IMG/VR virus record: IMGVR_UViG_2540341129_000004
Origin: an uncultured virus (IMG/VR IMGVR_UViG_2540341129_000004)
Taxonomy: Duplodnaviria; Heunggongvirae; Uroviricota; Caudoviricetes
Direction: 5' to 3' (one strand)
Length of the DNA stretch: 20,000 nucleotides
This document shows, one piece after another, positions 1,531 to 19,371 of the stretch. The translations under genes were made by a program, and so were the position numbers. The notes beneath the pieces are model-generated. The model was given only the letters and a program-made list of their open reading frames with translations, did no database searches and was not told where the DNA came from. Each line of letters starts with the position of its first letter. Position 1 is the first letter of the stretch.

Positions 1531-1852
1531 AGAATGAGTCTCGCTCTTCATCTGAAGGAGCTACTTTATAGGTGAATGTTCCATTATCATCGTTTATCTC
1601 AAATTCTGGCCAAGGTAACTTAGCGTATTCGTTTGCAATAGTGTTAGGATCTCCTTTTTTTATATATTCAAGACCAACGCGAGAACCGTTTCTAGGTTTT
1701 GGCTTAACAAGATACGACTTGGCAGACTCAAAGCAATGAATCATAAAAATAATAGATTTTTTCTCTTGGATGTTCATAGAGTCAATTTTAATTGGATAAA
1801 TAACAGTATTACCGCAAGGAGTTTCAGAAGGTAGAGCTCCAGAAATAAACAA
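1514..1852 (-). CDS. Hypothetical 112-aa protein inserted antisense between nrdE and nrdF
   Basis: TTG start preceded by SD AAGAGGT on the minus strand; fills the whole nrdE-nrdF gap; overlaps the nrdE end by 17 nt. Confidence 0.7.
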   Translation of the reverse strand: MFISGALPSETPCGNTVIYPIKIDSMNIQEKKSIIFMIHCFESAKSYLVKPKPRNGSRVGLEYIKKGDPNTIANEYAKLPWPEFEINDDNGTFTYKVAPSDEERDSFFKQRN

Positions 1853-1893: not shown

Positions 1894-1915
1894 AATAACA
1901 GGGGAGGAAAATCTC

Positions 1916-2911
1916 ATTAATAAAAAAATTCAGTATACAGCAGCAAACTGGTCAAAGCATGAAGATGATTTCACCCAAATGTTTTACAACCAAAACGTAA
2001 AGCAGTTTTGGCTTCCGGAAGAGATCGCATTAAACGGCGATCTTCTCACTTGGAAGTATCTTGGAACAAAGGAACAAGATACTTATATGAAAGTTTTAGC
2101 TGGGCTTACCTTATTAGACACAGAGCAGGGGAACACGGGCATGCCGATTGTGGCCGAGCACGTTGAGGGACATCAAAGAAAAGCAGTATTAAACTTTATG
2201 GCCATGATGGAAAACGCTGTCCATGCGAAGTCTTACAGCAACATCTTTCTAACTTTGGCTCCAACCGAGCAGATCAATGAAGTCTTTGAATGGGTTAAAA
2301 ACAATAAATTTCTTCAAAAGAAAGCAAGAACAATTGTTTCAATTTATGAAGAAGTTGAGAAAAACGATGAAATTTCACTGTTCAAAGCGATGGTTGCATC
2401 TGTGTTTCTGGAGAGTTTCCTTTTCTATTCAGGGTTTTATTATCCACTTTACTTTTATGGACAAGGGAAACTAATGCAGAGCGGGGAAATTGTGAATTTA
2501 ATTATCCGTGACGAGGCGCTACACGTCGTATACATCGGTTTATTAGCTCAAGAGATATATAAGAAACAAACGCCTCAGAAGCAAAAAGAACTGTATGAAT
2601 GGGCTTTATGCTTGCTACAAGAGCTTTATGAAAATGAACTGGAGTATACAGAAGATGTTTATGATCAGGTTGGTTTAGCTCCAGATGTAAAGAAATTCAT
2701 CAGATACAATGCGAATAAAGCTTTAAACAACCTGGGATTTGATCATCTGTTCGAGGAAGAAGACGTTAACCCAATTGTTATTAATGGATTGAGCACAAAG
2801 ACTAAATCCCATGACTTCTTTTCAATGAAGGGCGTTGGCTATAAAAAAGCAACGGTTGAACCATTAAAGGATTCTGATTTCATTTTCGATAGCAAAGGAG
2901 TTATTTCATGA
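1916..2911 (+). CDS. nrdF: Class Ib ribonucleotide reductase beta subunit; probable ATT start at 1916
   Basis: Conserved N-terminus [18 protein letters not shown] lies upstream of ATG 1979; SD GGAGG 1903-1907, ATT 8 nt later, in-frame TAG at 1889; motifs [30 protein letters not shown]; intron-less. Confidence 0.96.
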
Positions 2912-3150
2912 GACTGATTAAATTAGAACAACCGAATTGCAATCCTTGCAAAATGGTATCCAATTATTTAAACGAAGCAGGAGTCGAATATGAGACATTT
3001 GATGTAACACAGAAGCCAGAAGTGGCAGCGCAATATGAGGTAATGGGTGTACCGGTGACTATACTGCTTAATGAGCAAGGAGAGGAAGTAAAGCGGAGCA
3101 TTGGCTTTAAGCCTGATGAGCTTGATAAGTTAGTGAGGGAGGTTGTTTAA
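2908..3150 (+). CDS. Thioredoxin/NrdH-like redoxin (YosR-like)
   Basis: CNPC active site, GVP motif, 80 aa, ATGA overlap with the nrdF stop. Confidence 0.9.
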
Positions 3151-3391
3151 AATCACAGAAGAGCAAAAGTCTTTAATTAAGATTGGTGACACACTTAAGT
3201 GCCTAAAAGGGGATTGGCATTTTGAAAACAATTGTAATTACACAGTTTATGGAGATAATGCAGACAACACCGGTACACCAGTCATCTGGTGTGATGAAGT
3301 ATCTCCTCATACAGTAAAGAGTTTGAATTTGGAACAGTGGGAAATCGTTCAGAAAGGATCAATAAATGAGGTTAAATATGAGAGATTATAG
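3143..3391 (+). CDS. Hypothetical phage protein (start possibly ATC 3152)
   Basis: Overlaps both neighbours; GGAGG at 3138-3142 directly abuts the TTG, and in-frame ATC lies 9 nt downstream. Confidence 0.7.
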   Translation: MFKITEEQKSLIKIGDTLKCLKGDWHFENNCNYTVYGDNADNTGTPVIWCDEVSPHTVKSLNLEQWEIVQKGSINEVKYERL

Positions 3392-3734
3392 AATGTATAT
3401 TTTAGTTAACGAGGATATCAAAATCAGCAAAGGGAAGTTAGCTGGACAGGTTGGGCATGCAGTAATGAGCTATGTATATCACAAAGCAGTCAAGCCATTA
3501 AGTGAAGGAAGAGAAATTAAAAGCCTAGATGAATATATGAAAGAACAAAAGAAAATCATCTTAAAATGCCCCCAATACAAACTTGAAGAGTTAGAACATG
3601 CAGGAGGATATACTGTTATTAGAGATAAAGGTTATACACAACTTGAGCCTAATACTCTGACTTGTATTAACTACGGCATTAAGACACCTGAACAGCTTCC
3701 TGAATGGGTGATAAATCTTAAACTCTACAATTAA
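3378..3734 (+). CDS. Peptidyl-tRNA hydrolase, PTH2 family
   Basis: YILVNEDIKISKGKLAGQVGHA, KKIILK and IRDKGYTQLEPNTLTC match the PTH2 pattern GKxxxQxxHA / KivLK / DaGxTQ..pgtxT. Confidence 0.88.
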   Translation: MRDYRMYILVNEDIKISKGKLAGQVGHAVMSYVYHKAVKPLSEGREIKSLDEYMKEQKKIILKCPQYKLEELEHAGGYTVIRDKGYTQLEPNTLTCINYGIKTPEQLPEWVINLKLYN

Positions 3735-3786
3735 AATATTGTTGGACAAAATAAATTAAAAAAACTAAAGGAGTTAATAAAACATA

Positions 3787-4215
3787 ATGCAAATTAAAAT
3801 CAAATATTTAGATGATACACAAACAAGGATCAGCAAAATTGAGAAAGGGGATTGGATTGATCTCCGGGCGGCTGAAGATGTAGTAATCAAAAAGGACGAA
3901 TTTAAACTTATTCCGTTAGGAGTGGCAATGGAGCTGCCAGAAGGATATGAGGCCCATGTCGTCCCTCGTTCAAGCACATTTAAAAACTTCGGCATTATTC
4001 AAACAAACTCAATGGGTGTTATCGATGAGTCCTACAAGGGAGACAATGATTTCTGGTTCTTTCCGGCTTATGCATTACGGGATACAGAAATTAAAAAAGG
4101 GGAGCGTATCTGTCAGTTCAGAATCATGGAGAAGATGCCTGCAGTTGAATTGATTGAGGTAGATCATTTAGGCAACGATGATCGAGGCGGTCACGGATCG
4201 ACTGGAACTAAGTAA
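3787..4215 (+). CDS. dut: Trimeric dUTPase (YosS-like)
   Basis: [26 protein letters not shown] and RGGHGSTG motifs; SD AAGGAG upstream. Confidence 0.96.
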
Positions 4216-4410
4216 TACAAGCCCTGGCTTTGATCATGATGTTTGTCCAGTGGAGGGTCTCAGCCAGGGTACAACTTAAAATACTCAAAAAGCTCGACAA
4301 TTATGCCCAACAAAGCGGTTGTTTCATGAAAAGGTTTTAAAAACAGGGGTGTTGATGGAATGCACATCTCTATAAAAGAAGACTTTTATAGAAAAGTGAG
4401 GTGAGATTCA

Positions 4411-4710
4411 GTGAACAATTATGTAGATAAAATTAAAGAACATCTTCATAAAATTGCTGAGCTTGAAAAAGGATTGTCATTATTCAGTGAAGATGAAGAA
4501 GAATACATAAGCTTATTAGCTAAGATTCAACATCAGTTTGATTTAATTTCAGATGAATCAATGGAAGGGTTTAAAGAATTAACTTTACATATAAGAAATA
4601 CAGGTCAGAAAAGAATACAACGAGGAATTGACCAGCTACCTCAGACAATCAAAGAAAGTGTAAGTGAAGAAATCAAAGACATGAAGAGAGCCGGCGAGCT
4701 TTTTGATTGA
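4411..4710 (+). CDS. Hypothetical helical protein (YosV-like position)
   Basis: GTG start after SD GAGGTGA; 99 aa. Confidence 0.75.
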   Translation: MNNYVDKIKEHLHKIAELEKGLSLFSEDEEEYISLLAKIQHQFDLISDESMEGFKELTLHIRNTGQKRIQRGIDQLPQTIKESVSEEIKDMKRAGELFD

Positions 4711-4812
4711 TGTTTGAATTTTAAACATGCCTATATAAACAGTGACAAGTATCGATTGGGTGTGAGCTTAAATACAATACATTGAATACTTTGAACAACT
4801 GGAGGTCTTAAT

Positions 4813-4995
4813 GTGTTTAGACAATATCCAATATGGTACACACCGTCGCTGTATACTTTGAATTACTTGCCACAATTTTCACCATACATTGCTTACTTGA
4901 ATAGTGCTGAACGTTGTTTTCAACAATGTATGTACCAAACTCATGGTAATGCTGAATGGTGTCATAGAAACTGCTACGGCCCAATCTATCGATAA
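4813..4995 (+). CDS. Small Tyr/Pro/Cys-rich protein, possibly spore-associated
   Basis: SD GGAGG 4801-4805; Y/P-rich N-terminus and a C-x3-C...C-x3-C C-terminus. Confidence 0.65.
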   Translation: MFRQYPIWYTPSLYTLNYLPQFSPYIAYLNSAERCFQQCMYQTHGNAEWCHRNCYGPIYR

Positions 4996-5003
4996 ACTTA
5001 AAC

Positions 5004-5038
5004 AGAGCAGTTGGATTTAATTCCTCTGCTCTAAAAAA
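5004..5038. terminator. Stem-loop after the ORF 4813-4995
   Basis: AGAGCAG(ttGGA)...(TCCt)CTGCTCT inverted repeat followed by an A-run (U-tract for the minus strand). Confidence 0.5.
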
Positions 5039-5054
5039 TAAAATAAGGAGATGT

Positions 5055-5465
5055 ATTGTAATTACATACTTTACGTTAATACTTGCAGCATACTTATTTG
5101 CACTAAACATTAATGAAATTAGATTAATTACACGAGGAGAACAGAATGTATACGCTAAAATTACGCATATGCTTTCTAATTCACCGTATAAAGAACTGAA
5201 GAAAAATAAGAACTTAGTGTATGTCATTACATTGTTCAAGGGGATTTCGTTCATTATTCCCTTGGCTACTATTGGACTGATTACGCATGGTAATTTGCTA
5301 ATGTTAGCTTGGACAGCCTTTGCTTTAATCTATACCGGTTTAACAATGTTTAAAATTCTTGATGTTTTGGACGGTGACTCAAACAATAAACAAAACAAGT
5401 TCGTGTACATTTTGTTTGTTTGCGGTAATATAGTTTTTTCTCTAATTTTTATTTTTCCTTTTTAG
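5055..5465 (+). CDS. Multi-pass membrane protein; frame extends upstream of ATG 5169 to ATT 5055/5061
   Basis: Open hydrophobic extension IVITYFTLILAAYLFALNINE follows SD AAGGAG 5045-5050; about 4 hydrophobic segments. Confidence 0.7.
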   Translation: MVITYFTLILAAYLFALNINEIRLITRGEQNVYAKITHMLSNSPYKELKKNKNLVYVITLFKGISFIIPLATIGLITHGNLLMLAWTAFALIYTGLTMFKILDVLDGDSNNKQNKFVYILFVCGNIVFSLIFIFPF

Positions 5466-5481
5466 GTCTCTTAAGTGTTAA

Positions 5482-6129
5482 TCACCATCTAAAGCCGAAT
5501 TTTTTTGGCACTTCATAGCATTTTAGACACTGAGGTTTTACATTGTAAGCATAGTGTCTAGGATTTTTCTTATTGGTCAGAAGGGATGAGTATGGTTTAT
5601 CCTCACTGGTATGCATGCATGTCGCATAGACGTTTGCTTGATTTGTGGAATTAAATACATCATGTACAGCTTGTCTCTGAATATTGTAGTTCATTTGCTG
5701 GTGCTTTAACATTGAAGGTCTACCTCCCCAAGCACATACTACACGTTCAGAAATATCTAAGTGTTTTTCAATAAGTTTATTATTTAGATATAGAATTTTA
5801 TAATACTTTTTCCCGTAAGTGGCTTTACATTTTTCTAATAGTTCTCCCAATTTGTTGGCGTCTGAAGCATAAAAAGGGAATAAGTTAAGTACTCTGATTT
5901 CACCAGCATATTTTTTTGAAAAGAAAAATGAAATAATATTATCAATAGTTGGATCAGATTTTGTTGCTGTTGCTCTAGAAGGATTCATAAGAATAATAGT
6001 TATAATGTTTCTTAAATTGTTATTTAATTTTATTTTCAATAAAAATCTAAACGAAATATTAGCACCTAAATGAAAAACTTTGCAATGAACATTTTTAACA
6101 AAATCATTATTGGCAAAGGGTATAGCCAA
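5482..6129 (-). CDS. DUF1643-family protein
   Basis: IILMNPSxA...DPTI, VLNLFP, VVCAWG and PRH motifs typical of DUF1643; SD AAAGGTG upstream of the TTG. Confidence 0.8.
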   Translation of the reverse strand: MAIPFANNDFVKNVHCKVFHLGANISFRFLLKIKLNNNLRNIITIILMNPSRATATKSDPTIDNIISFFFSKKYAGEIRVLNLFPFYASDANKLGELLEKCKATYGKKYYKILYLNNKLIEKHLDISERVVCAWGGRPSMLKHQQMNYNIQRQAVHDVFNSTNQANVYATCMHTSEDKPYSSLLTNKKNPRHYAYNVKPQCLKCYEVPKKFGFRW

Positions 6130-6179
6130 ATTAAATCACACCTTTTTTAGAAGTGAAAAAATTATACACTAACTGGAGG

Positions 6180-7031
6180 ATGAAAGCCATAAGCAATTTC
6201 ACAGATATTATTGTAAAAGAAAATTTAAAGCGGGTTTTAACTGAAGGGAAAACTGAAGCGGGTAGTTCAGTAAGACCTAAATGGAAAGATGGACTTCCAG
6301 CTTATTCATTAAAAACCTTCGGAGTTGTTAATCAATACGATCTTCAGAAAAGTTTCCCAATTTCAACACTAAGACCCACTGCTTGGAAAAGTGGATTAAA
6401 AGAGATAATGTGGATTTATAATGACGCATCAAATGATGTTGATTTACTGGAAAGAAAATATGGAGTTAAATATTGGAGGAGTTGGGCCAATAGTGAAGGG
6501 AATTTAGGATTAGCTTATGGAAGACAAATGCAATATGAGCACAGGTATAAGGAAGGCTATTTTAAACAAATTGAAAGACTGATTTGGGATCTTAAAAAGA
6601 ATCCGTATAGCAGGAGAATGATAACAAACTTGTACAATCATCAAGACTTATTTGAAATGACTCTCTATCCATGCGCATTTTTAACAATGTGGGACTATGA
6701 CGGAGAGTATCTGAATATGACATTAGTCCAACGATCTTCAGATTATCTAGTAGCTGGTAACATAAATGTCACCCAGTATGCTTTATTGCAACACATGATT
6801 GCACAATCAGTAGGCTACAAAGTGGGAAAATTTCATCACTATATTAATAACCTTCATATTTATGATCGACATGTTAACGTTGCAAAGGAAATTGTTTCAC
6901 GGGAATCTAAAGATACTCCTAGGCTTATTATTGACGATTCAATAAGGAACTTTTACGATTTTAAACCAGAGCATTTTTCTTTGGAAGGGTATAATCCTCA
7001 TGAACAAATTACGCTTGAGGTAGCAGTATAA
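6180..7031 (+). CDS. thyA: Thymidylate synthase (start ATG 6180 or, by SD spacing, ATA 6189)
   Basis: AYGRQ, NPYSRR, LYPCAF (catalytic Cys), QRSSD, N..QY and NLHIYDRH motifs. Confidence 0.96.
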   Translation: MKAISNFTDIIVKENLKRVLTEGKTEAGSSVRPKWKDGLPAYSLKTFGVVNQYDLQKSFPISTLRPTAWKSGLKEIMWIYNDASNDVDLLERKYGVKYWRSWANSEGNLGLAYGRQMQYEHRYKEGYFKQIERLIWDLKKNPYSRRMITNLYNHQDLFEMTLYPCAFLTMWDYDGEYLNMTLVQRSSDYLVAGNINVTQYALLQHMIAQSVGYKVGKFHHYINNLHIYDRHVNVAKEIVSRESKDTPRLIIDDSIRNFYDFKPEHFSLEGYNPHEQITLEVAV

Positions 7032-7537
7032 TGCTGTCTCTTATTGCTTGCTGCGACAAATCAATGGCCATCGGGTATGAGAATAATTTGCTGTACCATA
7101 TTCCTGAAGACATGAAACGTTTTAAAGAACTCACTACAGGAAAGCTGTGTATACAGGGAAGGCTTACATACGAATCAATCGTAAACATTACAGGAAAACC
7201 ACTTCAGAATCGAAGGAATATCATATTAACCAAAAACAAGGATTTCAAGCCTGATCACTCTTCTTTTGTTTATCATTCGGTTGCCGATGTATTAAAGCTT
7301 ATACGTGGTCAATTGGATACAAATGAAGAAGTAATGGTCATTGGAGGAGGCGCTATATACGAGGCATTCTTACCACATGCTGATAAGGTTTATTTAACGA
7401 TTGTTGATTCAGTCGCTGCGAATGCAGATACATGTTTTCCAAGGTTAGCTGATGACTGGAGAGTAATTGAAAAGGATCACAGAAAAGCAGAAAACAATAC
7501 CACATTTAATTATTCATTTGTGACTTACTCAAAATAA
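7031..7537 (+). CDS. dfrA: Dihydrofolate reductase
   Basis: AIGYENNL, EDMKRFKELT, GRLTYES, PLQNRRNIILT, VIGGGAIY and ADTCFP motifs; TAATG coupling with thyA. Confidence 0.95.
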   Translation: MLSLIACCDKSMAIGYENNLLYHIPEDMKRFKELTTGKLCIQGRLTYESIVNITGKPLQNRRNIILTKNKDFKPDHSSFVYHSVADVLKLIRGQLDTNEEVMVIGGGAIYEAFLPHADKVYLTIVDSVAANADTCFPRLADDWRVIEKDHRKAENNTTFNYSFVTYSK

Positions 7538-7561
7538 TTAAGAATAAAAATAAAATAGTTA

Positions 7562-7590
7562 TAGACTTTTGGAAAGTTGAATGATAAGAT
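7562..7590 (+). promoter_or_regulatory. SigA-type promoter TAGACT-N17-(TGn)TAAGAT
   Basis: -35 at 7562-7567, 17-bp spacer, TG at 7582-7583, -10 at 7585-7590; A-rich UP-like region upstream. Confidence 0.6.
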
Positions 7591-7619
7591 AAAGACAAGT
7601 TAAAAGCTTGTCTTTTTTT
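7591..7619 (+). terminator. Intrinsic terminator downstream of thyA-dfrA
   Basis: AAAGACAAG-ttaaaag-CTTGTCTTT followed by a T-run. Confidence 0.7.
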
Positions 7620-7664
7620 ACATACTTTTAGAATAAAAATAAAATAATATATAGGAGTGACGAT

Positions 7665-8030
7665 ATGAAAACTGCAAAAGATTATCTTGTTTCCATTTCC
7701 AAACCTCTTGTTGCAATTGAGGAGACTAAACAACGACTTCAAAATGAAATTGATAACCTTTATAAAGAGCTAGGGAAAGTTGATAAAGAGCTCAATGAAT
7801 TTTATCACAAGCTAGAAGAGGCAAAATTTAATGCTTCAGAGGGATATCATCTTTCGTTAAAAGGTCAAAGGATATTGAGAAAGAGAAGAAACTTAAAACA
7901 AGAGCTCCAATTAATGAACACACTTTTCGGGAGTTTGAACAATAACGGTTGGACTCTTGAATCACTAAAAATTGCAGAGTATAAAATTAGCAAAAAGAAA
8001 AACAAGCATTTACAGTATGAATCAGTTTAA
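7665..8030 (+). CDS. Hypothetical coiled-coil phage protein
   Basis: SD AGGAGTG; 121 aa with a helical heptad pattern. Confidence 0.8.
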   Translation: MKTAKDYLVSISKPLVAIEETKQRLQNEIDNLYKELGKVDKELNEFYHKLEEAKFNASEGYHLSLKGQRILRKRRNLKQELQLMNTLFGSLNNNGWTLESLKIAEYKISKKKNKHLQYESV

Positions 8031-8088
8031 AGACATAATCCACATTCACATTGTGAAAACATATTTAATCTTATAGGGAGGTGATAAA

Positions 8089-8457
8089 TTGCAACAAAAA
8101 GAGCAAGAATTGCTGTCAAAGGAAGAACAGCTTGAAATTGATGTTTTAGAAAAGGAAGCAGCTTTACTCCGGCTAGAAGTGGAACAAGAAGATTTCAATC
8201 TCCACAAAATTGGGGAGATCGGAGTACTTAAAGATTTTCTCTTATACATAAAGAAATACAGAGCAATGTTTACTGTGCAGCAAGCAGAAGAATTTAGAGA
8301 TATGGATGACCGAATGAAAGAAATTATTAAAGTGCATGATGGACAAGTAATGGTTGATGAAGAAGCTTTAGAGGGGTTCATTTGTGAAATTGAAGATCAA
8401 ATTAATTTAATTGGAAGTGATGGAGATAAGAATAGTGGTGTAGATGATACACGGTAA
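8089..8457 (+). CDS. Hypothetical acidic protein (YosX-like)
   Basis: SD GGGAGGTGA, TTG start; position and size resemble SPbeta yosX. Confidence 0.8.
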   Translation: MQQKEQELLSKEEQLEIDVLEKEAALLRLEVEQEDFNLHKIGEIGVLKDFLLYIKKYRAMFTVQQAEEFRDMDDRMKEIIKVHDGQVMVDEEALEGFICEIEDQINLIGSDGDKNSGVDDTR

Positions 8458-8484
8458 TGCGCCCGGGTTTTTGGACGCAGAGAA

Positions 8485-8580
8485 TTAGCGTCCAAGAAGG
8501 GCGAAAATAGGTTTTCTGAATGCGAAAACAAATGCCGCTGTAAGTGCGATAACTACTTTATCTTCGGTTGATACTTTCAT
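8485..8580 (-). CDS. 31-aa hydrophobic peptide MKVSTEDKVVIALTAAFVFAFRKPIFALLGR (not in the ORF track)
   Basis: SD AAAGGAGG (8596-8589) 8 nt before the ATG; hairpin TTGGACGC/GCGTCCAA spans the stop. Confidence 0.75.
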   Translation of the reverse strand: MKVSTEDKVVIALTAAFVFAFRKPIFALLGR

Positions 8581-8674
8581 GAATCGAACCTCCTTTCGGT
8601 AACTTAGGTATATTGTATCACATAAGTGCGAATGTGTGTTCGGTTTTTGTGAAAATTTCGGGAGGGATTACGTA

Positions 8675-9052
8675 ATGGTATGTCGTTTATGCAAGGAACG
8701 CGGAAAAACGTGGGAAGGCTCCGATCCGGTATGCGCTTTTGAAAACGGTGTGTTTTCGCCGGACAATTGGGCGTGCGCAACGATGGGGAAACTGCGCAGA
8801 TTATCGGAGGAACTCGGACATTCCGATCGAGACGATGATTCTTGCGGATCAATAGGATACGTACCTTTAAGCGATAATTATGCGTCGGAAACTTACAACG
8901 ATTACGGAGGCTATATCATAATGATGTGGTACAAAGAGCGCGGAAAGGTTGGTAACGCACTATTTATGACCGACGAAAGCACGGTAACTTTGACGATTGA
9001 ACATGCAGAGATTGCGATTAAAACGGCTGAGAGGTGGTTGCGTAATGACTGA
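8675..9052 (+). CDS. Hypothetical Cys-containing phage protein
   Basis: SD GGGAGGG before ATG 8675; N-terminal CxxC. Confidence 0.8.
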   Translation: MVCRLCKERGKTWEGSDPVCAFENGVFSPDNWACATMGKLRRLSEELGHSDRDDDSCGSIGYVPLSDNYASETYNDYGGYIIMMWYKERGKVGNALFMTDESTVTLTIEHAEIAIKTAERWLRND

Positions 9053-10037
9053 AACGAAAAAGTATGTACGGATTAAGAAGGCGTCTGTAGAGGGAGCCTG
9101 GTATGCGGATAAGATCGGACAGATATTCGAAGTTGTACACGAAAACTCCATTACACTGCTTACAAAGAGCGGCGGTCATCATTCCGTACTCAAAGAAGAC
9201 GCCGAAATCATCGTCACAGAAAAGCGACCAGCCAAAGTTGGCGAGCGCGTGTTACTGACTGCGCCGACTAATACAAAAGGAAAACACCGAATAGGCGATG
9301 TATTCACCGTAAGAGAATTCGGAGAAACCGGCGTGCATGTAACTGAAGACGAATTTATGACGCTATGGCACAAAGAATACGAAGTCATCGTCAATAGTGA
9401 AGTGAAAAACGAGGATGGAACTAAGCACGAAGCCTCTGCTGAGGATTTGTGTACGGAACCAATGACTGAGGAAGTCAAACAACTACGTTGTACAGTGGCG
9501 AATTTGATTGGCGAGAATGAACGCTTGAAGGCGTCTTTTCAGGAAATCACGGAGCTCGCTGATAACTTTTACGTTGAGGATAATTCGGTTGCTAACGGTA
9601 TTTATATTATAAAACCAGATATCATGCAGTATTCAAATACGGTATATCTTATTCAAGCAATCGCAAAGGGCGTTAAAATGAAGCCGACAATCACGAAGGA
9701 ACAGGCAGAGGCTATAGAAGAACTCCGATTAAGATTGAGCGATGAAGGAATATTACTATCATATACAAATGATAGCTTAACAGTTGGCGATAATAAAAGT
9801 GGTTGTTTATATAATCTTGATTTATTAACATTAGCTACTGCATTAATTAACGGTTATGAATCTGAACCGACACCTGAGGAAAAACTGCGGGACTATTATG
9901 AACATATAAATAGATCGCGGGATGAGAGGTATGTAGCAGGGGATATTGAAGCTAAACGCCATAATGCTGGAGTATTAACCGGAATACGCAATACACTTGA
10001 CCTTCTCGGAATCGAAATCGAAGGGGTGAATGCTTGA
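9045..10037 (+). CDS. Hypothetical phage protein, apparently a mosaic of several small modules
   Basis: SD GAGGTGG before ATG 9045; internal Met-initiated modules (MTEEVKQL..., MKPTITKEQAEAIE...). Confidence 0.75.
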   Translation: MTETKKYVRIKKASVEGAWYADKIGQIFEVVHENSITLLTKSGGHHSVLKEDAEIIVTEKRPAKVGERVLLTAPTNTKGKHRIGDVFTVREFGETGVHVTEDEFMTLWHKEYEVIVNSEVKNEDGTKHEASAEDLCTEPMTEEVKQLRCTVANLIGENERLKASFQEITELADNFYVEDNSVANGIYIIKPDIMQYSNTVYLIQAIAKGVKMKPTITKEQAEAIEELRLRLSDEGILLSYTNDSLTVGDNKSGCLYNLDLLTLATALINGYESEPTPEEKLRDYYEHINRSRDERYVAGDIEAKRHNAGVLTGIRNTLDLLGIEIEGVNA

Positions 10038-10171
10038 TGAAGCGACCAGCACCGTATGAATTAAACGATTCAATAGCAGCGCTGAAGCTCGGCGTACCTG
10101 AACACCTTTATCATCACGTTTGGTGCCTTATTTACGAAATCGAAGCATTACAAGAGGAGGCCACAAGATGA
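10037..10171 (+). CDS. 44-aa hypothetical protein (MKRPAPYELND...), not in the ORF track
   Basis: SD AAGGGGTG; TGATG and ATGA overlaps with both neighbours. Confidence 0.7.
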   Translation: MKRPAPYELNDSIAALKLGVPEHLYHHVWCLIYEIEALQEEATR

Positions 10172-10509
10172 TCGATAAATTGACGAAAGATCAACTCGAA
10201 GTAATCCGAAAGCGTTCGGAGAAGGCTACGGAAGGCCCGTGGCGAATCGGGAAGCAATCACCAAACGGATTAAATAATATCGGAACAATTGGCGGATTAC
10301 TGACTGCACAAACAACGGATGAAGAGGACGCAAATTTCATCGCAAACGCCCGCCAAGATATTCCGTCGCTACTCGATCACATTACTTTTCTAAACGAAGT
10401 AATATCGAGCTGCCGATGCGCTGAGTGTGGCGATGAATTGGGGGAAGATTGGGCAACTAACAACGGAGTAGCGTTTTGCAATTACTGTGCTGGACTTAAT
10501 TCTTTATGA
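10168..10509 (+). CDS. Ead/Ea22-like phage protein with a C-terminal zinc-ribbon
   Basis: KATEGPW...DANFIANARQDIPSLL motif; two CxxC pairs; SD AGGAGG before ATG 10168. Confidence 0.75.
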   Translation: MIDKLTKDQLEVIRKRSEKATEGPWRIGKQSPNGLNNIGTIGGLLTAQTTDEEDANFIANARQDIPSLLDHITFLNEVISSCRCAECGDELGEDWATNNGVAFCNYCAGLNSL

Positions 10510-10538
10510 AATCTGTATTTTAAAGAGAAGGTGATACA

Positions 10539-10661
10539 GTGAAAGAGTCGTTGAAGAATGATTTTCAAGAGTTTATGAGTATTACAAAAAGCTTTCTTGC
10601 TGTTTCAGGAGCAGTCTTTTGGCTATTGATAATTTCACTTGTTTTTGCTGGAGGATATTAA
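10539..10661 (+). CDS. 40-aa single-TM membrane peptide
   Basis: SD AAGGTGA, GTG start; FLAVSGAVFWLLIISLVFAGG hydrophobic stretch. Confidence 0.65.
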   Translation: MKESLKNDFQEFMSITKSFLAVSGAVFWLLIISLVFAGGY

Positions 10662-10662
10662 A

Positions 10663-10695
10663 ATGAGTCACTCATATGTTCACCAAAGGAGGTGA
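10663..10695 (+). CDS. 10-aa micro-ORF MSHSYVHQRR
   Basis: GGAGG 10650-10654, ATG 8 nt later; its stop lies inside the next SD. Confidence 0.35.
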   Translation: MSHSYVHQRR

Positions 10696-10700
10696 ATAAA

Positions 10701-10739
10701 ATGCCAGTAGTACTTTATGGATTTGGAAGAGGAGCATAA
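10701..10739 (+). CDS. 12-aa micro-ORF MPVVLYGFGRGA
   Basis: Perfect SD AAAGGAGGTGA 10685-10695; a hairpin follows directly. Confidence 0.55.
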   Translation: MPVVLYGFGRGA

Positions 10740-10763
10740 AAAGAGAGGGGACAGACCCCTCTT
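10737..10763 (-). terminator. Terminator of sspC (possibly bidirectional)
   Basis: AGAGGGG-acaga-CCCCTCT stem with an A-run on the left (U-tract on the minus strand). Confidence 0.75.
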
Positions 10764-10765
10764 GA

Positions 10766-10823
10766 TTAATGAAATTGGCCATTCATACTTTGTTGGGCTA
10801 GGCGAACTAAACGCTTTGTAATC
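10766..10823 (-). pseudogene. sspC: 3' stub of an alpha/beta-type small acid-soluble spore protein gene
   Basis: Minus strand translates ITKRLVRLAQQSMNGQFH*, matching the SspC C-terminus; the upstream ANGSVGGE part is absent. Confidence 0.85.
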
Positions 10824-10842
10824 ATGAACAATAAACAAAGGA

Positions 10843-11787
10843 GTGAAATGTATAGGCATTATTAAAGAACAAAAGGTTGAGGTCAGCTGGAATCCTATGA
10901 CATCGAGACACTATCAAACACTAGGATATGAATTTACCTTTTGGAGGGATAAATTTCATGTGCCATATTATCATTTACCACTTACTTCTGAAAAAATGGT
11001 TTTAGTTTCTTGTGACAAAGAGAAATGCACAAATGTTAAGTCAGTTAAATATAATGAATTTAACCGGTTGTACAAAAATAAAAAATATGAATGTAAAAAA
11101 CATAGCCATTCTTATTATGAGGATAAAGCGAGGGAAAGAGGGTTTATTTTAACATCAGAATACAAAGGTGTAAAAGGTAAAGTTGATTTGATCTGTTTAA
11201 AGAATGGTCATAAATCAACAAAATTGTGGTCTCAAATTAATAATGGATCTAAATGTTTAAAATGTCATCAGGAAAGCCTGAAATTGAGCATTGATTATAT
11301 TAAAGAAGAATTCTTAAAGAAAAACTTATTGCTTTTATCAAATGAATACGCCAACGAAAAGAGCAAGTTAGCTTTTAAATGTAAGAATGGACACTATGGA
11401 GAAATTGCGTGGAACTATTTTCAACAAGGAGGGGGATGCCAGCAGTGCTATAGGAAGAGTCGTTTTAGAGAAGGTAATCCGAGGTGGAATAAGAATAAAA
11501 CTGATACTCAGAGGATAAATGACAGAAAGTATCGTGAATATTTACAGTGGAGAAAGAAAGTTCTACAGAGGGATGATTACACATGTCAAAAATGCTGGCT
11601 TAAAAAGAAAAAATATTTAACTGCTCACCATATCTATAATTATATGGAGCATAAAGATATTCGACTAGAAGTTGATAACGGGTTGACCTTGTGTGATTCT
11701 TGCCATGAACATTTTCATAATACATATGGATACACTAACAACAATTATATACAACTGTTTATGTACTTAAACAAAGAAGGGGGATAA
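10843..11787 (+). CDS. Free-standing HNH endonuclease with zinc-binding repeats (start possibly ATA 10852)
   Basis: C-terminal RDDYTCQKC...AHHI...[15 protein letters not shown]; repeated Y......K..F/L.C..GH...W......G..CxxC units. Confidence 0.9.
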
Positions 11788-11788
11788 T

Positions 11789-12616
11789 ATGAAAATCGAT
11801 TATGTTTCAGATCTTCATATTAATCACTGGATACCTTGGAACAATAACCAAATCAAATGGGAAAAGCGAACAAGGGAGATTATTAGAAGGTTAATATCGA
11901 ATGGAAATGGTGAGGTATTAATAATTGCCGGTGATTTTACTGAGTGGAATCAACAGACACTGTGGGTACTTGATGAAGTAGCAAAGCAGTATGAAAAGGT
12001 TTACTTTACATATGGTAATCATGATCTTTATTTACTCAGTAAAAATCAGCAACGAAAATATTCCGATTCATTGGGAAGGGTGAATGATTTAATTCAGAAG
12101 GCTGCAGACATCAAGAATGTCACTCCATTGATAAAGTCAACAGATACATACAAAGGGAAAGTCTTTGCCGGGGATGTCATGTGGTATCTTCCAAAAGGAA
12201 ATGAAGGATGGGATTTCTTCAAAGGTGTCTCTAATGATTCGAACTATATCAGCCTTAATGGATACAGCAAAGAAGATGGGGTACGAGCAATGTGGAAAGA
12301 ATCAATGGACTGGTATGACACTCTTGAAAACTCTGATATTGATGTATTTGTATCTCATGTCCCACCTGTTCACAATCCCTATTCTCCGTTCGAGCCTAAT
12401 ACGTGCTATATGGTTGATGTCCCGTTCATTAACGCAAAACATTGGGTTTGTGGTCATGATCATTTACAAGCTGAGTTTGACAAAGATGGAACGAGATTTC
12501 ACATGAATTGTATCGGATATCCGTATGACTATGATAATTACCCTAGTGTCAATGTGATACCAGATAAGCAAGTTGATACATATAAAACGTTTGAGTTGAA
12601 GACATTTGAAATATGA
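11789..12616 (+). CDS. yotB: Calcineurin-like metallophosphoesterase (YotB-like)
   Basis: SDLH, AGD, GNHD, SHVPP and GHDH motifs; 275 aa; position after sspC. Confidence 0.88.
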
Positions 12617-12625
12617 GGTGAATTC

Positions 12626-12847
12626 GTGAAGAAAAAATTAGATGATGTGTGGACAGTTGTATATAAAGATCATGATGAAGAACCTATGGCCTTTTCATAC
12701 TATTCCAAAACAGATGCGGAGATTGCAAAACAGACAATTGAAAAATCAAACGGTACTCAGCTAGTTAATGAAAAGGAAGAAGTCGTAGGGCATATTCATT
12801 TAGACTGGGTCTATTTAATCCAAGGGAGGTTAATTAAAACCGACTAG
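12626..12847 (+). CDS. Hypothetical protein (YotC-like position)
   Basis: SD GAGGTGA, GTG start. Confidence 0.75.
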   Translation: MKKKLDDVWTVVYKDHDEEPMAFSYYSKTDAEIAKQTIEKSNGTQLVNEKEEVVGHIHLDWVYLIQGRLIKTD

Positions 12848-12893
12848 GAGAGAGAAAATAAAATTCTAATTTTATTGAAAAGGGGAGATTAAA

Positions 12894-13253
12894 TTGAATA
12901 AGAGAGTAAAGAAGAAGATTCGAAATAGAGTTGAATCATGGATTATTTATAAGAATCCTAATGGGTCATATAATTCATTGGGTGTAAACAAATTTGGAGA
13001 AGTACCCTCCCATGCACGCCCTTTGCATCCTGAATATGAAACATTAGGAGAGGTCTTAAATTCATTCCCTAAAGGATTTAACTTTCCTTTGGTTGAGTTG
13101 ACAAAAGAAGAAGAAAACATGTTGTTCTTTGATCATCATCCTACAGAGTGCGGCTGCTGGCACACAGGAGATAGAGATACGTGGGGTATTTGGGGACAGA
13201 GGTATTTATTGAAAAAAGTATCGGATGGGTGTTGCGAATACGTCTCAAAATAA
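12894..13253 (+). CDS. Hypothetical protein
   Basis: SD AAGGGGAG, TTG start. Confidence 0.75.
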   Translation: MNKRVKKKIRNRVESWIIYKNPNGSYNSLGVNKFGEVPSHARPLHPEYETLGEVLNSFPKGFNFPLVELTKEEENMLFFDHHPTECGCWHTGDRDTWGIWGQRYLLKKVSDGCCEYVSK

Positions 13254-13294
13254 AATATTTATTTTCTGATTTTATCCAGAGAGGGGAAATGATA

Positions 13295-13534
13295 ATGGAT
13301 TACACAAAACTGTTAGAGGAAAAGTACCCAATTAGCATTATTCAGTATGTAAGACAGAGAGAAGGTTTAGATAAGAAAGATGTCTCCAAGGATAAAGAAA
13401 TCTTAGAAATGACGAACTCAGAAGTATTTAGAGAGGTTCTAGCATGGAATGGTTTTATTGGAGGATGGGATCACATAATTAAAGACTGGATTAAGAGCAT
13501 TTATGGAATCGATCTTGATGACTTTGAAAAGTGA
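13295..13534 (+). CDS. Hypothetical protein (MDYTKLLEEKY...; alternative start 13289)
   Basis: SD GAGGGG upstream; the longer ORF-track start overlaps the previous gene. Confidence 0.75.
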   Translation: MDYTKLLEEKYPISIIQYVRQREGLDKKDVSKDKEILEMTNSEVFREVLAWNGFIGGWDHIIKDWIKSIYGIDLDDFEK

Positions 13535-13696
13535 AACCATGTCATATGGACAAAGTAATAAAGTTGACTATGCTTCGACTGGTGATGAAACTGATTTTGA
13601 TTGTCCTAAATACGAAGGGAATCATCTTGAAGAAATAGACAACAGCATTTAAAAGAGCAGTAAAAGGCCTCAAATTTTCACAGGGGGATTGCTATT

Positions 13697-13873
13697 ATGA
13701 TTGGAAAAGCATTATACAATAATTCATGGTTTGAAGTAGCAAATATCAACTTTGACACAGGGCATATCATAATTAAAAACGACAGTGAAAACTCGTTGGG
13801 TTTGAGAATAGGTAAAACACTAACACTTGATCTTGATTACGTCGATGATGTAAAAATTGGACTTCTGCTGTAA
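13697..13873 (+). CDS. 58-aa hypothetical protein (MIGKALYNNSWFEVANINFDTG...)
   Basis: SD AGGGGG, ATG; below the ORF-track cutoff. Confidence 0.7.
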   Translation: MIGKALYNNSWFEVANINFDTGHIIIKNDSENSLGLRIGKTLTLDLDYVDDVKIGLLL

Positions 13874-13916
13874 ATGAATAAAATGTTGATTTTATCGGAA
13901 GGGAGAGAATTTAATA

Positions 13917-14078
13917 ATGAGTACCCAAAGAGGGGCAAATACACCGGAGGAATTGGCTAAATCAATTCAGAAATTAGGAAGGGAAATGCAAGAATTTAGT
14001 GAATGCAGTAATGGTATTCGTGAAATTGTTATTACTCTAGATGAAGATGATGGTTCATTTACGATTACAACAGATTAA
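13917..14078 (+). CDS. 53-aa hypothetical protein (MSTQRGANTPEELAK...)
   Basis: SD AAGGGAG, ATG; bounded by two junction palindromes. Confidence 0.7.
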   Translation: MSTQRGANTPEELAKSIQKLGREMQEFSECSNGIREIVITLDEDDGSFTITTD

Positions 14079-14110
14079 AATTTGATTTCATTTAGAAAGG
14101 GGATAGGAAA

Positions 14111-14350
14111 ACGGACGTTTTAGAAAGAGCGATTAAACGTGAGAGACAAACCAAGTGTAAACTCCTAAGAAAGTTTAGAAAAGCTAGAGATATGGCTAGC
14201 AAACATAGTAAAAGAGGGTACACATGCAATTTCCTTAGGAGGCAAATTAGATATCATGATCAGTACAGTTGGATTCAGAAATACTCAAAAAACGAACTTG
14301 CAATAAGAATATTTCAATGGTCAGAACGAGAGAGAAACATGTTCAGATAA
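14111..14350 (+). CDS. 79-aa basic hypothetical protein with an ACG start (xDVLERAIKRERQTK...)
   Basis: SD AAAGGGG 14096-14102, ACG 8 nt later, open frame to TAA 14348-14350 fills the gap. Confidence 0.55.
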   Translation, partial: TDVLERAIKRERQTKCKLLRKFRKARDMASKHSKRGYTCNFLRRQIRYHDQYSWIQKYSKNELAIRIFQWSERERNMFR

Positions 14351-14370
14351 AATTAAGAAGGGAGAGTCTT

Positions 14371-14811
14371 ATGGAGAACGCAATGTCCTGGTTTGATATA
14401 GACTTTGAGTTTAAACCAGACAATAAAATTGATGAAGCTCTATTGCGATTATTTGATCTCATGAAGAAGAGTCTCCACATTTATTTCAATATTGAAAACT
14501 CTTCTGATATTCATGAGTTTTTAAAAATCGTAGCTGCAAAAAACAATGTTGATTATTCCTTCATTGAATGGATTAGGGGAAAGGGCATCCCAAGATTAAA
14601 GAAAATTGATTTCGAAAATTTACCAAGCAATGATCAATTTCTTGCAATGATTGAGATCGATGAATACTGTCTTAAATGTGAAATGGATTTTAAAGAGCCA
14701 GAAGAGGTAAGGGGTTGCATCATCACGATCATTAATAGCATTCAGGAATATACTAATATTTGCAAACAGTTAATCAAAGGAGAGAGTTTTAATGACGAAA
14801 ACAGAATTTAA
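14371..14811 (+). CDS. Hypothetical protein (MENAMSWFDIDFEFK...)
   Basis: SD AAGGGAG before ATG 14371. Confidence 0.8.
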   Translation: MENAMSWFDIDFEFKPDNKIDEALLRLFDLMKKSLHIYFNIENSSDIHEFLKIVAAKNNVDYSFIEWIRGKGIPRLKKIDFENLPSNDQFLAMIEIDEYCLKCEMDFKEPEEVRGCIITIINSIQEYTNICKQLIKGESFNDENRI

Positions 14812-15340
14812 TGTTAATGATATATTAGAAAATTATAAACGAAGAGATGAGGAACGTAGGGAGTTCATCATTCATGAAGGCTACAGAGCTATCGAAGAGA
14901 TCATTAAAGAAGTGAATCAAAGGGGGTCGCTAAATGAGGCTGATATTTATTACGGAACACCTAGGCCACAGCTAAGTTTCTCGGACGTTGAATTAGGCTA
15001 CATGCTTACTTCAATGATGGAATATGCGACAAATCATGTAGGAAATCCAGCAGATGAGAAATGTGAACTTGAAAATAAGCTGGCTTACTTTAAGTATAAG
15101 GACGAAATTGTTCAAATTTTTGAAGTTTATGGACAAGGTACTGACAGCTGGTTTTTGAAACCAAGTGACGATACCGTTTATAAATTGAATAACACAGCTT
15201 ACGGAGTGTATTTAAACCAGTTCGATGATTTCATTAATTACACTAAAAATAAAGACAATGAGAGTAAAAAGGTTTCTTATAGTACCACGATCTTAAATGA
15301 CATTACCGGTGGATATACAGTGGGAAGAGGTTCTAAGTAG
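14792..15340 (+). CDS. Hypothetical protein
   Basis: SD AAAGGAG; 182 aa. Confidence 0.8.
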   Translation: MTKTEFNVNDILENYKRRDEERREFIIHEGYRAIEEIIKEVNQRGSLNEADIYYGTPRPQLSFSDVELGYMLTSMMEYATNHVGNPADEKCELENKLAYFKYKDEIVQIFEVYGQGTDSWFLKPSDDTVYKLNNTAYGVYLNQFDDFINYTKNKDNESKKVSYSTTILNDITGGYTVGRGSK

Positions 15341-15514
15341 ATGATTGTGACAGCTTGGATCTTGTTAATTGTATTTGGTTTATTTGCTTTATCAGATTTT
15401 GATGTAACTGAGGACGAAACAAAGCATATAAAATTCTTCGTATTTATGAAATTTGTTTCAGTATTCATTGTTGCTATTGCAGCAGGAGTGATTTGGGGAG
15501 GGTTATTTCAATGA
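15341..15514 (+). CDS. 57-aa two-TM membrane protein (YotH-like)
   Basis: [18 protein letters not shown]...; SD AAGAGGT; ATGA overlap with the next gene. Confidence 0.75.
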
Positions 15515-15942
15515 AGACGATTAAATTATATGAACTTGTATCACAAGGTAAAAAACCGATTATTAAATTTAATGACAATGTGTATGAATGGATTGAAGAA
15601 TCAGTCGATCCCATGATGATGGGGAAAATAATTGGGGTTTCAATTGAGTATGATGAGATTAAATTTTTATTAGATTTGAATCCTTTTGAAGCATACAATC
15701 GAAGCGTTGCGCGGCATGATTGGAGAGATGATGAAGGGAATAATGTTTTATCATGGTTTGAGACTTCTTTCTATCCGAAAAACGGAATTGTAGCTATTTA
15801 CTTGCCTATTGATGAAAAAACAGAAATCGCATTTGATTTTATAGAAGAGGATTCTTTATTAAATGAATATGCAAAAAACACTCAAGACATGTCGTATGTT
15901 GAATGGCTGGAAAATGAAGTTAAGCAATTAAGGATTAAATAA
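15511..15942 (+). CDS. Hypothetical protein (YotI-like)
   Basis: SD GGGAGGG before ATG 15511. Confidence 0.8.
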
Positions 15943-15997
15943 AATCGGTCATTTATTTAGAGTGAAAATAAAATAAGTGTATTGGAGGTGGAGGGTA

Positions 15998-16183
15998 ATA
16001 ACTGAGCACTTTAAGAACATTCAAATACTGTTCAACAAAATGGAAAGGCAAATGGGTACGGTGAAAGAAGCTCTCGAGAACAAAGAATACGAAAGAGCCC
16101 ATCGTAACCTAATCAACCTTTCAGATAACAATGAAGAATTGATGCAGGAAATCAGATGGGCTCGGAAAGGGATTAAGATTTAA
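15998..16183 (+). CDS. 61-aa hypothetical protein (YotK-like), probable ATA start
   Basis: SD GGAGGTGG at 15984-15991 precedes ATA 15998; the ORF-track GTG 15977 has no SD. Confidence 0.65.
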   Translation: MTEHFKNIQILFNKMERQMGTVKEALENKEYERAHRNLINLSDNNEELMQEIRWARKGIKI

Positions 16184-16412
16184 CTTTTCTTCTTTCTTCG
16201 TGGTTCCATTCGTACAACTCTTCAATTGAGCAACCAATGGCATCAGCAAAAGTCATGCCCGTAGCCAAGTTCATGTTTGCTTTAGCTCCACTTATATAAT
16301 CGTGGATACGTTGTCTGGGGTATCCTGTGCGTTTGAAAAGGTCATCAACTGTGAGGTCATATTCAAACATTAATTCATTTAAACGAGGGCGCAGGGGTGT
16401 CCATTGCTTCAT
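16173..16412 (-). CDS. XRE/Cro-like HTH transcriptional regulator (YotL-like)
   Basis: LNELM...LTVDDLFKRTGYPRQRIHDYISG...LATGMTFADAIGCSIEELY HTH pattern. Confidence 0.85.
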   Translation of the reverse strand: MKQWTPLRPRLNELMFEYDLTVDDLFKRTGYPRQRIHDYISGAKANMNLATGMTFADAIGCSIEELYEWNHEERRKVKS

Positions 16413-16509
16413 TTCGAACACTTCTTTCAATATTAATTAACATAAAACAGTGTAGCAAAGGTTTATTCTAATTTCAATTTTAGTTTCAATATTTTAGGAG
16501 AGTGATTGA

Positions 16510-17046
16510 TTGGGAGGTACAAACCAAGGCAAGGTTTTTGAAGCAAATATAGAAAAATCAGCTGCAGATCAAAAGCTGTTCTTCTATAGAATTAAAGATG
16601 TTAACCCAATGTTTTTGAAAAGGGGAGCAGCTGTATCAAAAAACAAATACGATTGTTTCCTGCACTTTAAAGGTTATCTTTTTCCTTTTGAACTTAAATC
16701 AACAAAGAACAAGTCTGTATCTTTCAGTGAAAAGATCATCAAGCCACAACAGATTAAACACTTAAAAGAGGCAGCGCAATATCCAAACATAATTCCTGGT
16801 TTTCTATTTCAGTTTAGAGAGCCGGAAAACAAAGTTTATTTCGTACATATTAATGATTTCCTTACATATAAGAACATAGCTGAAAATCAGTTGTCACATA
16901 CATATAAGAATAAAGTAAACAAATCCAGTATTCCAATTGCAATTTGCGAAGAGATCGGCACAGAAGTCCGTTCGATGAAGAAAAAAGTTAACTATACATA
17001 TTATCTGAACAAGCTTTGCAATGATTTGATTAAGAAGGTGAAATAA
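16510..17046 (+). CDS. RecU-like Holliday junction resolvase (YotM-like)
   Basis: NQGKVFE, YDC, FELKST and QIKHL motifs of the RecU family. Confidence 0.85.
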   Translation: MGGTNQGKVFEANIEKSAADQKLFFYRIKDVNPMFLKRGAAVSKNKYDCFLHFKGYLFPFELKSTKNKSVSFSEKIIKPQQIKHLKEAAQYPNIIPGFLFQFREPENKVYFVHINDFLTYKNIAENQLSHTYKNKVNKSSIPIAICEEIGTEVRSMKKKVNYTYYLNKLCNDLIKKVK

Positions 17047-17829: not shown

Positions 17830-17839
17830 TATTCGATAT

Positions 17840-19206: not shown

Positions 19207-19371
19207 ACAGCTCCTTTGGAAAATTATTTACAGTGGCATCTTATTTCCAAATTATGTATTACGTGTTAGGTAAATTTTATCGTTCTTGTTTTAGGTATTT
19301 AATCACGCGCTTGGGTTTTTATAAACTTGATATTGAATAAAACATTGCCTAATTATGAAAGGAGGACGGGT

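Follow-up and report, generated by a model that had tools for sequence, protein, structure and literature searches.

Near-cognate start codons are a known means of limiting gene expression in bacteria: the AUU start of Escherichia coli infC, against which initiation factor 3 (IF3) discriminates, mediates autoregulation by this factor, and E. coli pcnB likewise starts at AUU. Here, we analysed seven genes with candidate near-cognate starts in a 20,000-nucleotide stretch of viral DNA (referred to as the window), which comprises positions 111601-131600, the final 20 kb, of the 131.6 kb IMG/VR provirus record IMGVR_UViG_2540341129_000004. An ATT, ATA or ATC codon (together ATH, or AUH in the mRNA), in one case ACG, follows a Shine-Dalgarno sequence (SD) in each of these genes. 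The ATH codons are real and not sequencing errors; we consider it probable that they are genuine starts, while the ACG start is doubtful.

The closest described host sites are those of Staphylococcus aureus. In the part of the report drawn on here, ribosome profiling with retapamulin (Ribo-seq) mapped AUA and AUU starts at infC, ccpN, cvfC1 and citZ, for infC, ccpN and cvfC1 the start is predicted to be set by an extended SD, and reporters yielded about 10% of the AUG level, with up to 30% for ccpN in rich medium (PMC13009471). The same part describes that the efficiency of the ccpN AUA start varies with growth medium and that its arrangement is conserved in Bacillus subtilis, and it cites the AUU codons of infC and pcnB as near-cognate starts (PMC13009471). 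The phage sites resemble these host sites in the Firmicute translation apparatus, in AUU or AUA codons suitably spaced behind a strong, extended SD and in the conservation of the codon, and attenuation was proposed there. However, the S. aureus sites were mapped and tested with reporters, while those of the phage are read from sequence, and a handful of host genes there compares with about 6% of the phage genome here. For the phage SPP1, the section of PMC6316719 used here gives a non-canonical start for none of 80 open reading frames (ORFs).

Within the same phage group, the RefSeq entry of SPBc2 (NC_001884) lists 185 coding-sequence starts, which divide into 120 ATG, 44 TTG, 12 GTG, six ATT (youA, yoqL, yorM, yorY, bnrdI and yotK) and three CTG (yomF, yoqK and yotH). 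The orthologues of yotK, yorY and yorM are near-cognate in both genomes. However, the SPBc2 list contains no counterparts of the thyA, nrdF-variant, HNH, ORF 3152 and ACG ORF starts described below, only ATT and CTG are annotated there whereas ATA and ATC are common in the present genome, and yosW is annotated from a downstream TTG instead of ATH, with loss of its first membrane helix. The mechanism is of a known kind and already annotated in the type phage; the new members are thyA, the nrdF variant, the HNH gene, ORF 3152 and the corrected start of yosW. A literature search, whose scope did not include the 1999 SPBc2 genome paper, found no paper on near-cognate starts in SPbeta-like phages.

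The provirus is SPbeta-like, with 49 Bacillus phage records matching in megablast, headed by SPbetaL8, SPbetaL5 and SPBc2 at 86-89% identity in a patchy pattern. Pfam confirmed the gene content assumed in the initial annotation and identified in the window the 3' end of nrdE, nrdF, the thioredoxin-like yosR, a PTH2-family protein, dUTPase, thymidylate synthase, dihydrofolate reductase, an HNH endonuclease and a yotB-like phosphoesterase. All seven near-cognate sites could be read directly in the sequence where that annotation had placed them, all on the plus strand. Their SD duplex energies, computed with B. subtilis-type anti-SD pairing, range from -8.8 to -14.0 kcal/mol, at an aligned spacing of 6-9 to the proposed codons. 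The first downstream ATGs, on the other hand, are without SD (-3.5 kcal/mol for nrdF, -3.0 for the ACG ORF, -1.5 for yotK and +0.8 for the membrane ORF). The canonical codons ATG 6180, GTG 10843 and TTG 3143 had been described as lying directly against or inside the SD, which we likewise observe, and ATG 5051 also abuts its SD; an SD of their own is nearly nil for ATG 6180 (-5.2 kcal/mol), GTG 10843 (-3.3) and ATG 5051 (-4.2). From the anatomy of the sites, their conservation and the lack of usable canonical codons in several of the families, all directly observed, we infer that initiation takes place at the AUH codons and that output would be low.

The gene nrdF, encoding the class Ib ribonucleotide reductase (RNR) beta subunit, is read from ATT 1916 (1916-2911), and this predicted start is forced. 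Its SD GGGGAGG at 1901-1907 (-11.7 kcal/mol) has an aligned spacing of 6-8 to ATT, an in-frame TAG occupies 1889-1891, the first ATG follows at 1979 and no in-frame ATG, GTG or TTG is present between TAG 1889 and the conserved N-terminus. Counted from ATT, residue 10 is the first of the Pfam small-chain RNR domain, and the match to the PHROG profile begins at residue 7. Reading from ATG 1979 would remove 21 residues, and the SPbetaL8 gene is indeed annotated from an internal ATG with loss of 21 conserved residues. The SD-ATT module is common to the window, SPbetaL8 and the viral contig L052. Orthologues had been proposed as a check for conserved or swapping ATH codons, and while ATH is kept with swaps among ATT, ATA and ATC in genes discussed below, nrdF departs from this pattern and partly shows the outcome that had been named as counting against the idea: 74 of 80 viral loci carry TTG (the most frequent), ATG or GTG behind an SD, five are without readable assignment and one, L052, has ATT. 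Between the window and SPbetaL8, which both have ATT, dN/dS is 0.059 at a dS of 0.78, and the gene body is under selection. The 5' module is closer to SPbetaL8 than the gene body (92% vs 87%) and may have been transferred by recombination, and the 5' difference of the gene from its relatives begins at the first codons.

Upstream of nrdF, a reverse ORF (1514-1852, minus strand, 112 aa) without Pfam family separates it from nrdE and is also present in SPbetaL8. At the same junction, Goe12 has another reverse ORF and SPBc2 about 330 bp without annotated gene, which gives this place the look of a hot spot for insertions. At the edge of this mosaic junction, next to the reverse ORF, lies the beginning of the nrdF ATT module. 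A group I intron or upstream exon was considered for nrdF (SPBc2 bnrdF has an intron) and rejected, the window gene being uninterrupted and of full length, although no Rfam scan was made.

For the yosW-like membrane protein (5055-5465), a start at ATT appears equally forced. The SD AAGGAG at 5045-5050 (-8.8 kcal/mol) has a spacing of 7-10 to ATT 5061, and the start would be either ATT 5061 (spacing 10) or ATT 5055 (spacing 4), while ATG 5051 is in a different frame that stops after about 20 codons. A search of 46 related records found the gene in 28. Clade A comprises 16 loci and the window at 88-98% identity; none of the 17 has the ATG adjoining the SD in frame, no in-frame canonical codon occurs in the conserved N-terminal helix (I-x-I-T-Y-F-T-L...) and the first downstream canonical codon lies anywhere from codon 13 to 54. 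In clade B, to which the SPBc2 type belongs (11 loci at 54-61% identity), this ATG is in frame, and the homologue in L172 lacks it. In total, 17 of 29 sequences, window included, are without in-frame canonical codon upstream. In most of the 28 relatives, ATH directly precedes ACA-TAY and lies 9-10 nt after GGAG, with ATT in clade A and ATA in clade B. The spacer differs by 1 nt in length between the clades and appears to behave as non-coding sequence can. Since the ATH before ACA-TAY holds this position in both clades, we prefer ATT 5061 over ATT 5055 as the putative start; either way, the codon would be ATT.

The yotK homologue (15998-16183, 61 aa from ATA 15998) is preceded by the double SD GGAGGTGGAGGG at 15984-15995, composed of GGAGG (15984-15988) and GGAGGG (15990-15995), with -14.0 kcal/mol and a spacing of 9 to ATA. 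Family membership follows from 71% tblastn identity over 58 aa to SPBc2 YotK and a match to phrog_34948 over positions 2-60 of 61 (E 1e-29), and a helix-turn-helix gene follows on the opposite strand (16173-16430) in synteny with the yotL-like helix-turn-helix gene. Homologues occur in 35 of 46 related records. Among the 30 loci that were read, the start codon is ATA in 14 and ATT in eight, with no ATG at that codon, and in the eight most distant loci (47-60% identity) ATG or TTG occupies the next codon downstream, at 7 nt from AAGGAGG, so that the position of the family's N-terminus is settled. Within the ATH group the spacers are highly diverse, as would be expected if they were non-coding, and ten of 23 ATH sequences are without in-frame canonical codon upstream; the window has an in-frame GTG 21 nt upstream, itself without SD (-4.6 kcal/mol). 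SPBc2 RefSeq already annotates yotK with ATT where the window orthologue has ATA. A start at ATA 15998 is strongly supported by this comparison.

The predicted start of thymidylate synthase (thyA, 6189-7031) at ATA 6189 is well supported. Its SD GGAGG at 6175-6179 (-11.4 kcal/mol), which ATG 6180 abuts, has a spacing of 8-9 to ATA. The 18 viral loci comprise one ATT, three ATC, six ATA and six ATG starts with two unassigned, hence ATH in 10 of 18. The closest relative, L011, carries the ATT and has it in place of ATA 6189 in an otherwise identical context, the ATC and ATA loci sit behind GAGGTGA, and the six ATG loci have their codon behind the SD, with an N-terminus one residue shorter. Among GenBank phages no close annotated thyA relative was found, the best match remaining below 46% identity without a comparable start.

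Two further starts are plausible but ambiguous because an in-frame canonical codon lies inside the SD. The 79-aa ORF 3152 (3152-3391, from ATC 3152 or alternatively TTG 3143) is preceded by GAGGGAGG at 3135-3142 within the yosR 3' end (-13.6 kcal/mol, spacing 8-9 to ATC); its GGAGG core occupies 3138-3142, with TTG 3143 directly against it and 5 nt before the yosR stop. The five relatives have ATC (one) or ATT (four) at the proposed codon and TTG at -9 throughout. The HNH homing-endonuclease gene would start at ATA 10852 (10852-11787), behind AAGGAGTG at 10838-10845 (-10.9 kcal/mol, spacing 8), whose GGAG core at 10840-10843 is overlapped by GTG 10843. ATA is kept in all six relatives, at 95-100% identity. 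Positions 5-80 of phrog_12131 align to residues 7-84, and the next SD-preceded canonical codon, GTG 10960, would therefore cut the conserved N-terminal domain. Matches in GenBank phages start only at about residue 80, phrog_12131 alone covering the N-terminus.

As to the surroundings of the HNH gene, only the last 18 codons of sspC persist upstream (10769-10822, minus strand), with 89% identity to SPBc2 SspC residues 55-72, and the terminator hairpin of the gene is kept as well. The cassette begins at this break in sspC and ends at 11787, directly before the start of yotB at 11789; most of sspC and the intergenic region between sspC and yotB have thus given way to it. The same arrangement is seen in six other viral records. 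A 13-codon ORF in another frame, from ATG 10824 to TAA 10863, overlaps both the SD and the ATA start of the HNH gene.

Support is weak for the seventh site, a basic 79-aa ORF possibly read from ACG 14111 (14111-14350). Its SD AGAAAGGGG at 14094-14102 (-12.4 kcal/mol) has a spacing of 7 to ACG and is overlapped by an in-frame TAG at 14093. Alternatively, the product would be 52 aa long and begin at ATG 14192, a codon without SD. In the one relative, L120, a 1-nt spacer indel gives rise to an in-frame GTG that lies too close to the SD, and four of the six substitutions in the ORF are synonymous. A viral contig scan yielded this single locus, a genome contig scan gave 189 pattern matches with none confirmed, and neither Pfam nor PHROGs assigned a family.

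To place these sites in the context of the whole 131.6 kb record, an SD-first screen was carried out that was blind to codon identity. It yielded 800 SD-like sites at -9 kcal/mol or stronger, 169 of which are accounted for by a canonical start opening an ORF. Entries were kept if the frame opened at most 60 nt upstream, ran for at least 45 codons, belonged to the non-overlapping ORF set and had no good canonical start upstream. This left 16 entries, including eight distinct genes in which an SD of -10.9 kcal/mol or stronger is not followed by a canonical start at spacing 3-14. In five of these eight (nrdF, thyA, HNH, yotK and a small ORF at genome position 79209), ATT or ATA is the single in-frame codon at spacing 7-9, which against an ATH background of 7.4% among 24,253 codons, drawn from the 3' 70% of those selected ORFs that have 100 codons or more, corresponds to a binomial p of 1e-4. 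ORF 3152, the ACG ORF, the membrane ORF and the yorY-like ORF were missed by the screen owing to its length-based ORF selection and SD threshold.

Outside the window, four more candidates were found, namely the yorY-, yorM- and XkdX-like genes and one small ORF. The yorY and yorM orthologues carry ATT or ATC behind strong SDs: yorY keeps ATT (genome 104104) and yorM has ATT/ATC (100866/100869). Of 30 yorY loci read by eye, 27 have ATT or ATC behind the SD, even at identities as low as about 37%, and three have GTG or ATG. In the XkdX-like gene (genome 24814, minus strand), ATA follows GGGAGG at a distance of 9 nt, and the first canonical codon is codon 33, which lies inside the Pfam domain (residues 21-60); its relatives have ATA in four and ATG in seven cases. 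A direct swap of start codon is seen at yotH, where ATG in this genome aligns to CTG in SPBc2. At genome 79173-79385, a 58-aa ORF carries ATA 7 nt behind GAAAGGAGG (-15.6 kcal/mol), is without SD-preceded canonical start and belongs to no Pfam or PHROG family.

In total, 11 near-cognate candidates compare with 152 confident canonical starts in the genome. The mean SD duplex energy is -10.8 kcal/mol for ATG, -12.3 for GTG, -12.8 for TTG and -12.9 for the 11 near-cognate codons, the last differing from the mean of -11.45 over all 152 canonical starts with a one-sided Mann-Whitney p of 0.02. Weaker start codons sit behind stronger SDs. The candidates are further concentrated in the right arm: in the window stretch, seven near-cognate starts compare with 20 canonical ones and elsewhere four with 132 (Fisher p = 3e-4), a contrast that is inflated to some degree by the region outside the window having been screened only automatically.

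Several observations weigh against near-cognate initiation. The ATT of SPBc2 bnrdI is likely misplaced, with an in-frame GTG in SPBc2 (TTG in this genome, 110673-110681) two codons upstream; the gene more likely starts at this canonical codon, with a predicted N-terminus M-I-I-T-Y-E-S, and annotated ATT starts are consequently not all reliable. The ATT variant of nrdF is rare, found in one of 80 viral loci and in SPbetaL8, and the dN/dS of this gene may reflect divergence before recombinational transfer of the 5' module. The low ratio was for this reason rejected as decisive proof that nrdF is expressed from ATT. Ribosomes terminating on yosR could reinitiate at TTG 3143 or at ATC 3152 and so translate ORF 3152, and ACG 14111 is backed by a single relative at 97% identity. 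ATT, ATA and ATC are all isoleucine codons, and a conserved internal isoleucine would swap alike. Finally, an in-frame ATG, GTG or TTG is present exactly 9 nt upstream in thyA (11 of 11), ORF 3152 (6 of 6), HNH and the 11 loci of yosW clade B.

This last pattern speaks for initiation at the codon embedded in or abutting the SD (ATG 6180, GTG 10843, TTG 3143 and the clade B ATG of yosW), or at a downstream ATG, with ATH as an internal isoleucine, a reading we regard as unlikely, if less so than the other alternatives. Gene callers picked such codons, for example in SPbetaL8, whose yosW homologue is annotated from the abutting ATG, and the overlap of TTG 3143 with the yosR stop region makes coupling possible. 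However, a codon only 0-1 nt away from GGAGG is too close to occupy the P site while the SD helix is formed, and the SD-embedded codons have no SD of their own. The -9 position would follow automatically from the extended SD consensus GGAGGTG at optimal spacing, since a GTG, ATG or TTG triplet whose first base precedes the true start by 9 nt is necessarily in frame with it, and would thus be a by-product and no independent evidence for the canonical codon. It nevertheless leaves the start of these genes, thyA among them, ambiguous in formal terms. Moreover, initiation at an embedded codon is inapplicable to nrdF, to the 17 sequences of yosW clade A, to 10 of 23 yotK sequences and to the XkdX-like gene, and the downstream ATGs, themselves without SD, would truncate conserved domains.

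Alternatively, ATH could be a product of decay, in which accessory genes lost ATG or TTG by AT-biased mutation or junction recombination and became silent or nearly so. In favour of this, the nrdF ATT is confined to the window, SPbetaL8 and L052 and has an inserted reverse ORF next to it at a mosaic junction, the HNH gene is part of a mobile cassette, and the candidates cluster in the mosaic right arm (7 vs 20 there against 4 vs 132 elsewhere, Fisher p = 3e-4, the outside being screened less thoroughly). However, ATH codons persist with intact ORFs across deep divergence in yorY, yotK, yosW and thyA, strong SDs are retained at the right spacing, and the nrdF dN/dS of 0.059 is low. In addition, the third base of the start changes among T, A and C at least about eight times in five families, as counted by eye, and never to G in ATH clades, for which the chance is about 0.04 if all changes are equally likely. 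This is weakly unexpected under neutrality and hints at selection against a strong start, with low power at this number of changes. We therefore regard decay as the least probable of the explanations considered.

We propose that the near-cognate codons probably act as translational attenuators behind strong, extended SDs, in the manner of infC, ccpN and cvfC1, a reading that rests on the phage sites having the same anatomy as those of S. aureus. A strong and often extended SD (GGAGG followed by T/A-TG) would hold the 30S subunit such that the P site comes to lie 7-10 nt downstream, on AUH. The initiator tRNA would pair imperfectly there, so that the protein would still start with formylmethionine (fMet), at a fraction of the AUG rate. 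As SPbeta-like phages transcribe long polycistronic units, the start codon could serve as a per-gene attenuator for products that are accessory, enzymatic or potentially harmful, here the RNR beta subunit, thymidylate synthase, a homing endonuclease, a membrane protein and small proteins. The infC case of E. coli differs in being a feedback loop on IF3 itself, and the phage gene content suggests neither such feedback nor a link to IF3.

In the initial annotation it was further suggested that the AUH genes are co-regulated, with translation rising when initiation fidelity falls during lytic growth, for example through a lower ratio of IF3 to 30S subunits, possibly together with Pth2. The high density of near-cognate starts lends some weight to this idea, with about 6% of the genes of this genome and nine of 185 annotated SPBc2 genes non-canonical, compared with four mapped sites in the whole S. 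aureus genome (PMC13009471) and none of 80 ORFs in SPP1 (PMC6316719), as far as the parts of both reports used here extend; the medium dependence of the ccpN AUA start, described in the former, points in the same direction. A PTH2-family gene is also present: the peptidyl-tRNA hydrolase homologue at 3366-3734, flanked by ORF 3152 and the gene for dUTPase, is borne out by Pfam (PF01981, E 1e-17), but nothing ties it to start-codon choice. At this position, the annotations of SPbetaL8 and Goe12 show a hypothetical gene of about the same size.

However, no IF3 homologue (IF3_N, IF3_C) was found in the 131.6 kb record and aragorn finds no tRNA in it; a phage IF3 homologue and a phage-encoded initiator-like tRNA were accordingly rejected as factors. 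The AUH genes share neither function nor location, as the XkdX-like gene belongs to the late structural region but the rest to the early right arm, and SPBc2 as annotated has ATT starts without any gene between yosR and yosS, the position of Pth2. The data thus lend no support to a coordinated AUH regulon, which we consider improbable; gene-by-gene attenuation explains the same data and is simpler.

Beyond the genes discussed, the window shows further signs of mosaicism. The region 8000-11000 has a G+C content of 0.40-0.42 compared with 0.32-0.37 in the flanks and contains three or four ORFs with ATG behind an SD (8675, 9045, 10168); from about 10200 onwards the sequence matches phi105/rho14 at roughly 91-92% identity, and on account of this partial match the region looks like a mosaic insertion. 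A second stretch, 17800-19700, 3' of the yotM-like resolvase gene (16510-17046), is about 92% identical to phi105-type and other small Bacillus phages, and a second segment of phage origin may thus be contained in the end of the provirus record.

The principle at work is already established for a few host genes and already annotated for SPBc2. For annotation, the consequence is that genes with such starts are mis-annotated by standard gene callers, which disallow ATT, ATA and ATC; the XkdX-like, yorY-like and ACG ORFs were passed over by length-based ORF selection, and callers restricted to canonical starts may miss them too. A bolder reading, to which we assign a low probability, is that the dispersed set of AUH starts is kept under selection against AUG and senses the initiation state of the host, with translation increasing when IF3 discrimination weakens in induction or particular growth states. 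If this were true, a timing or dosage programme would be encoded in start codons and not in promoters. SPbeta-like phages provide a dense natural set of near-cognate starts (about 5-6% of genes) with deep conservation in several families and a genetically easy host, which could be used to measure how Firmicute ribosomes employ extended SDs at AUH codons, and whether this use is regulated.

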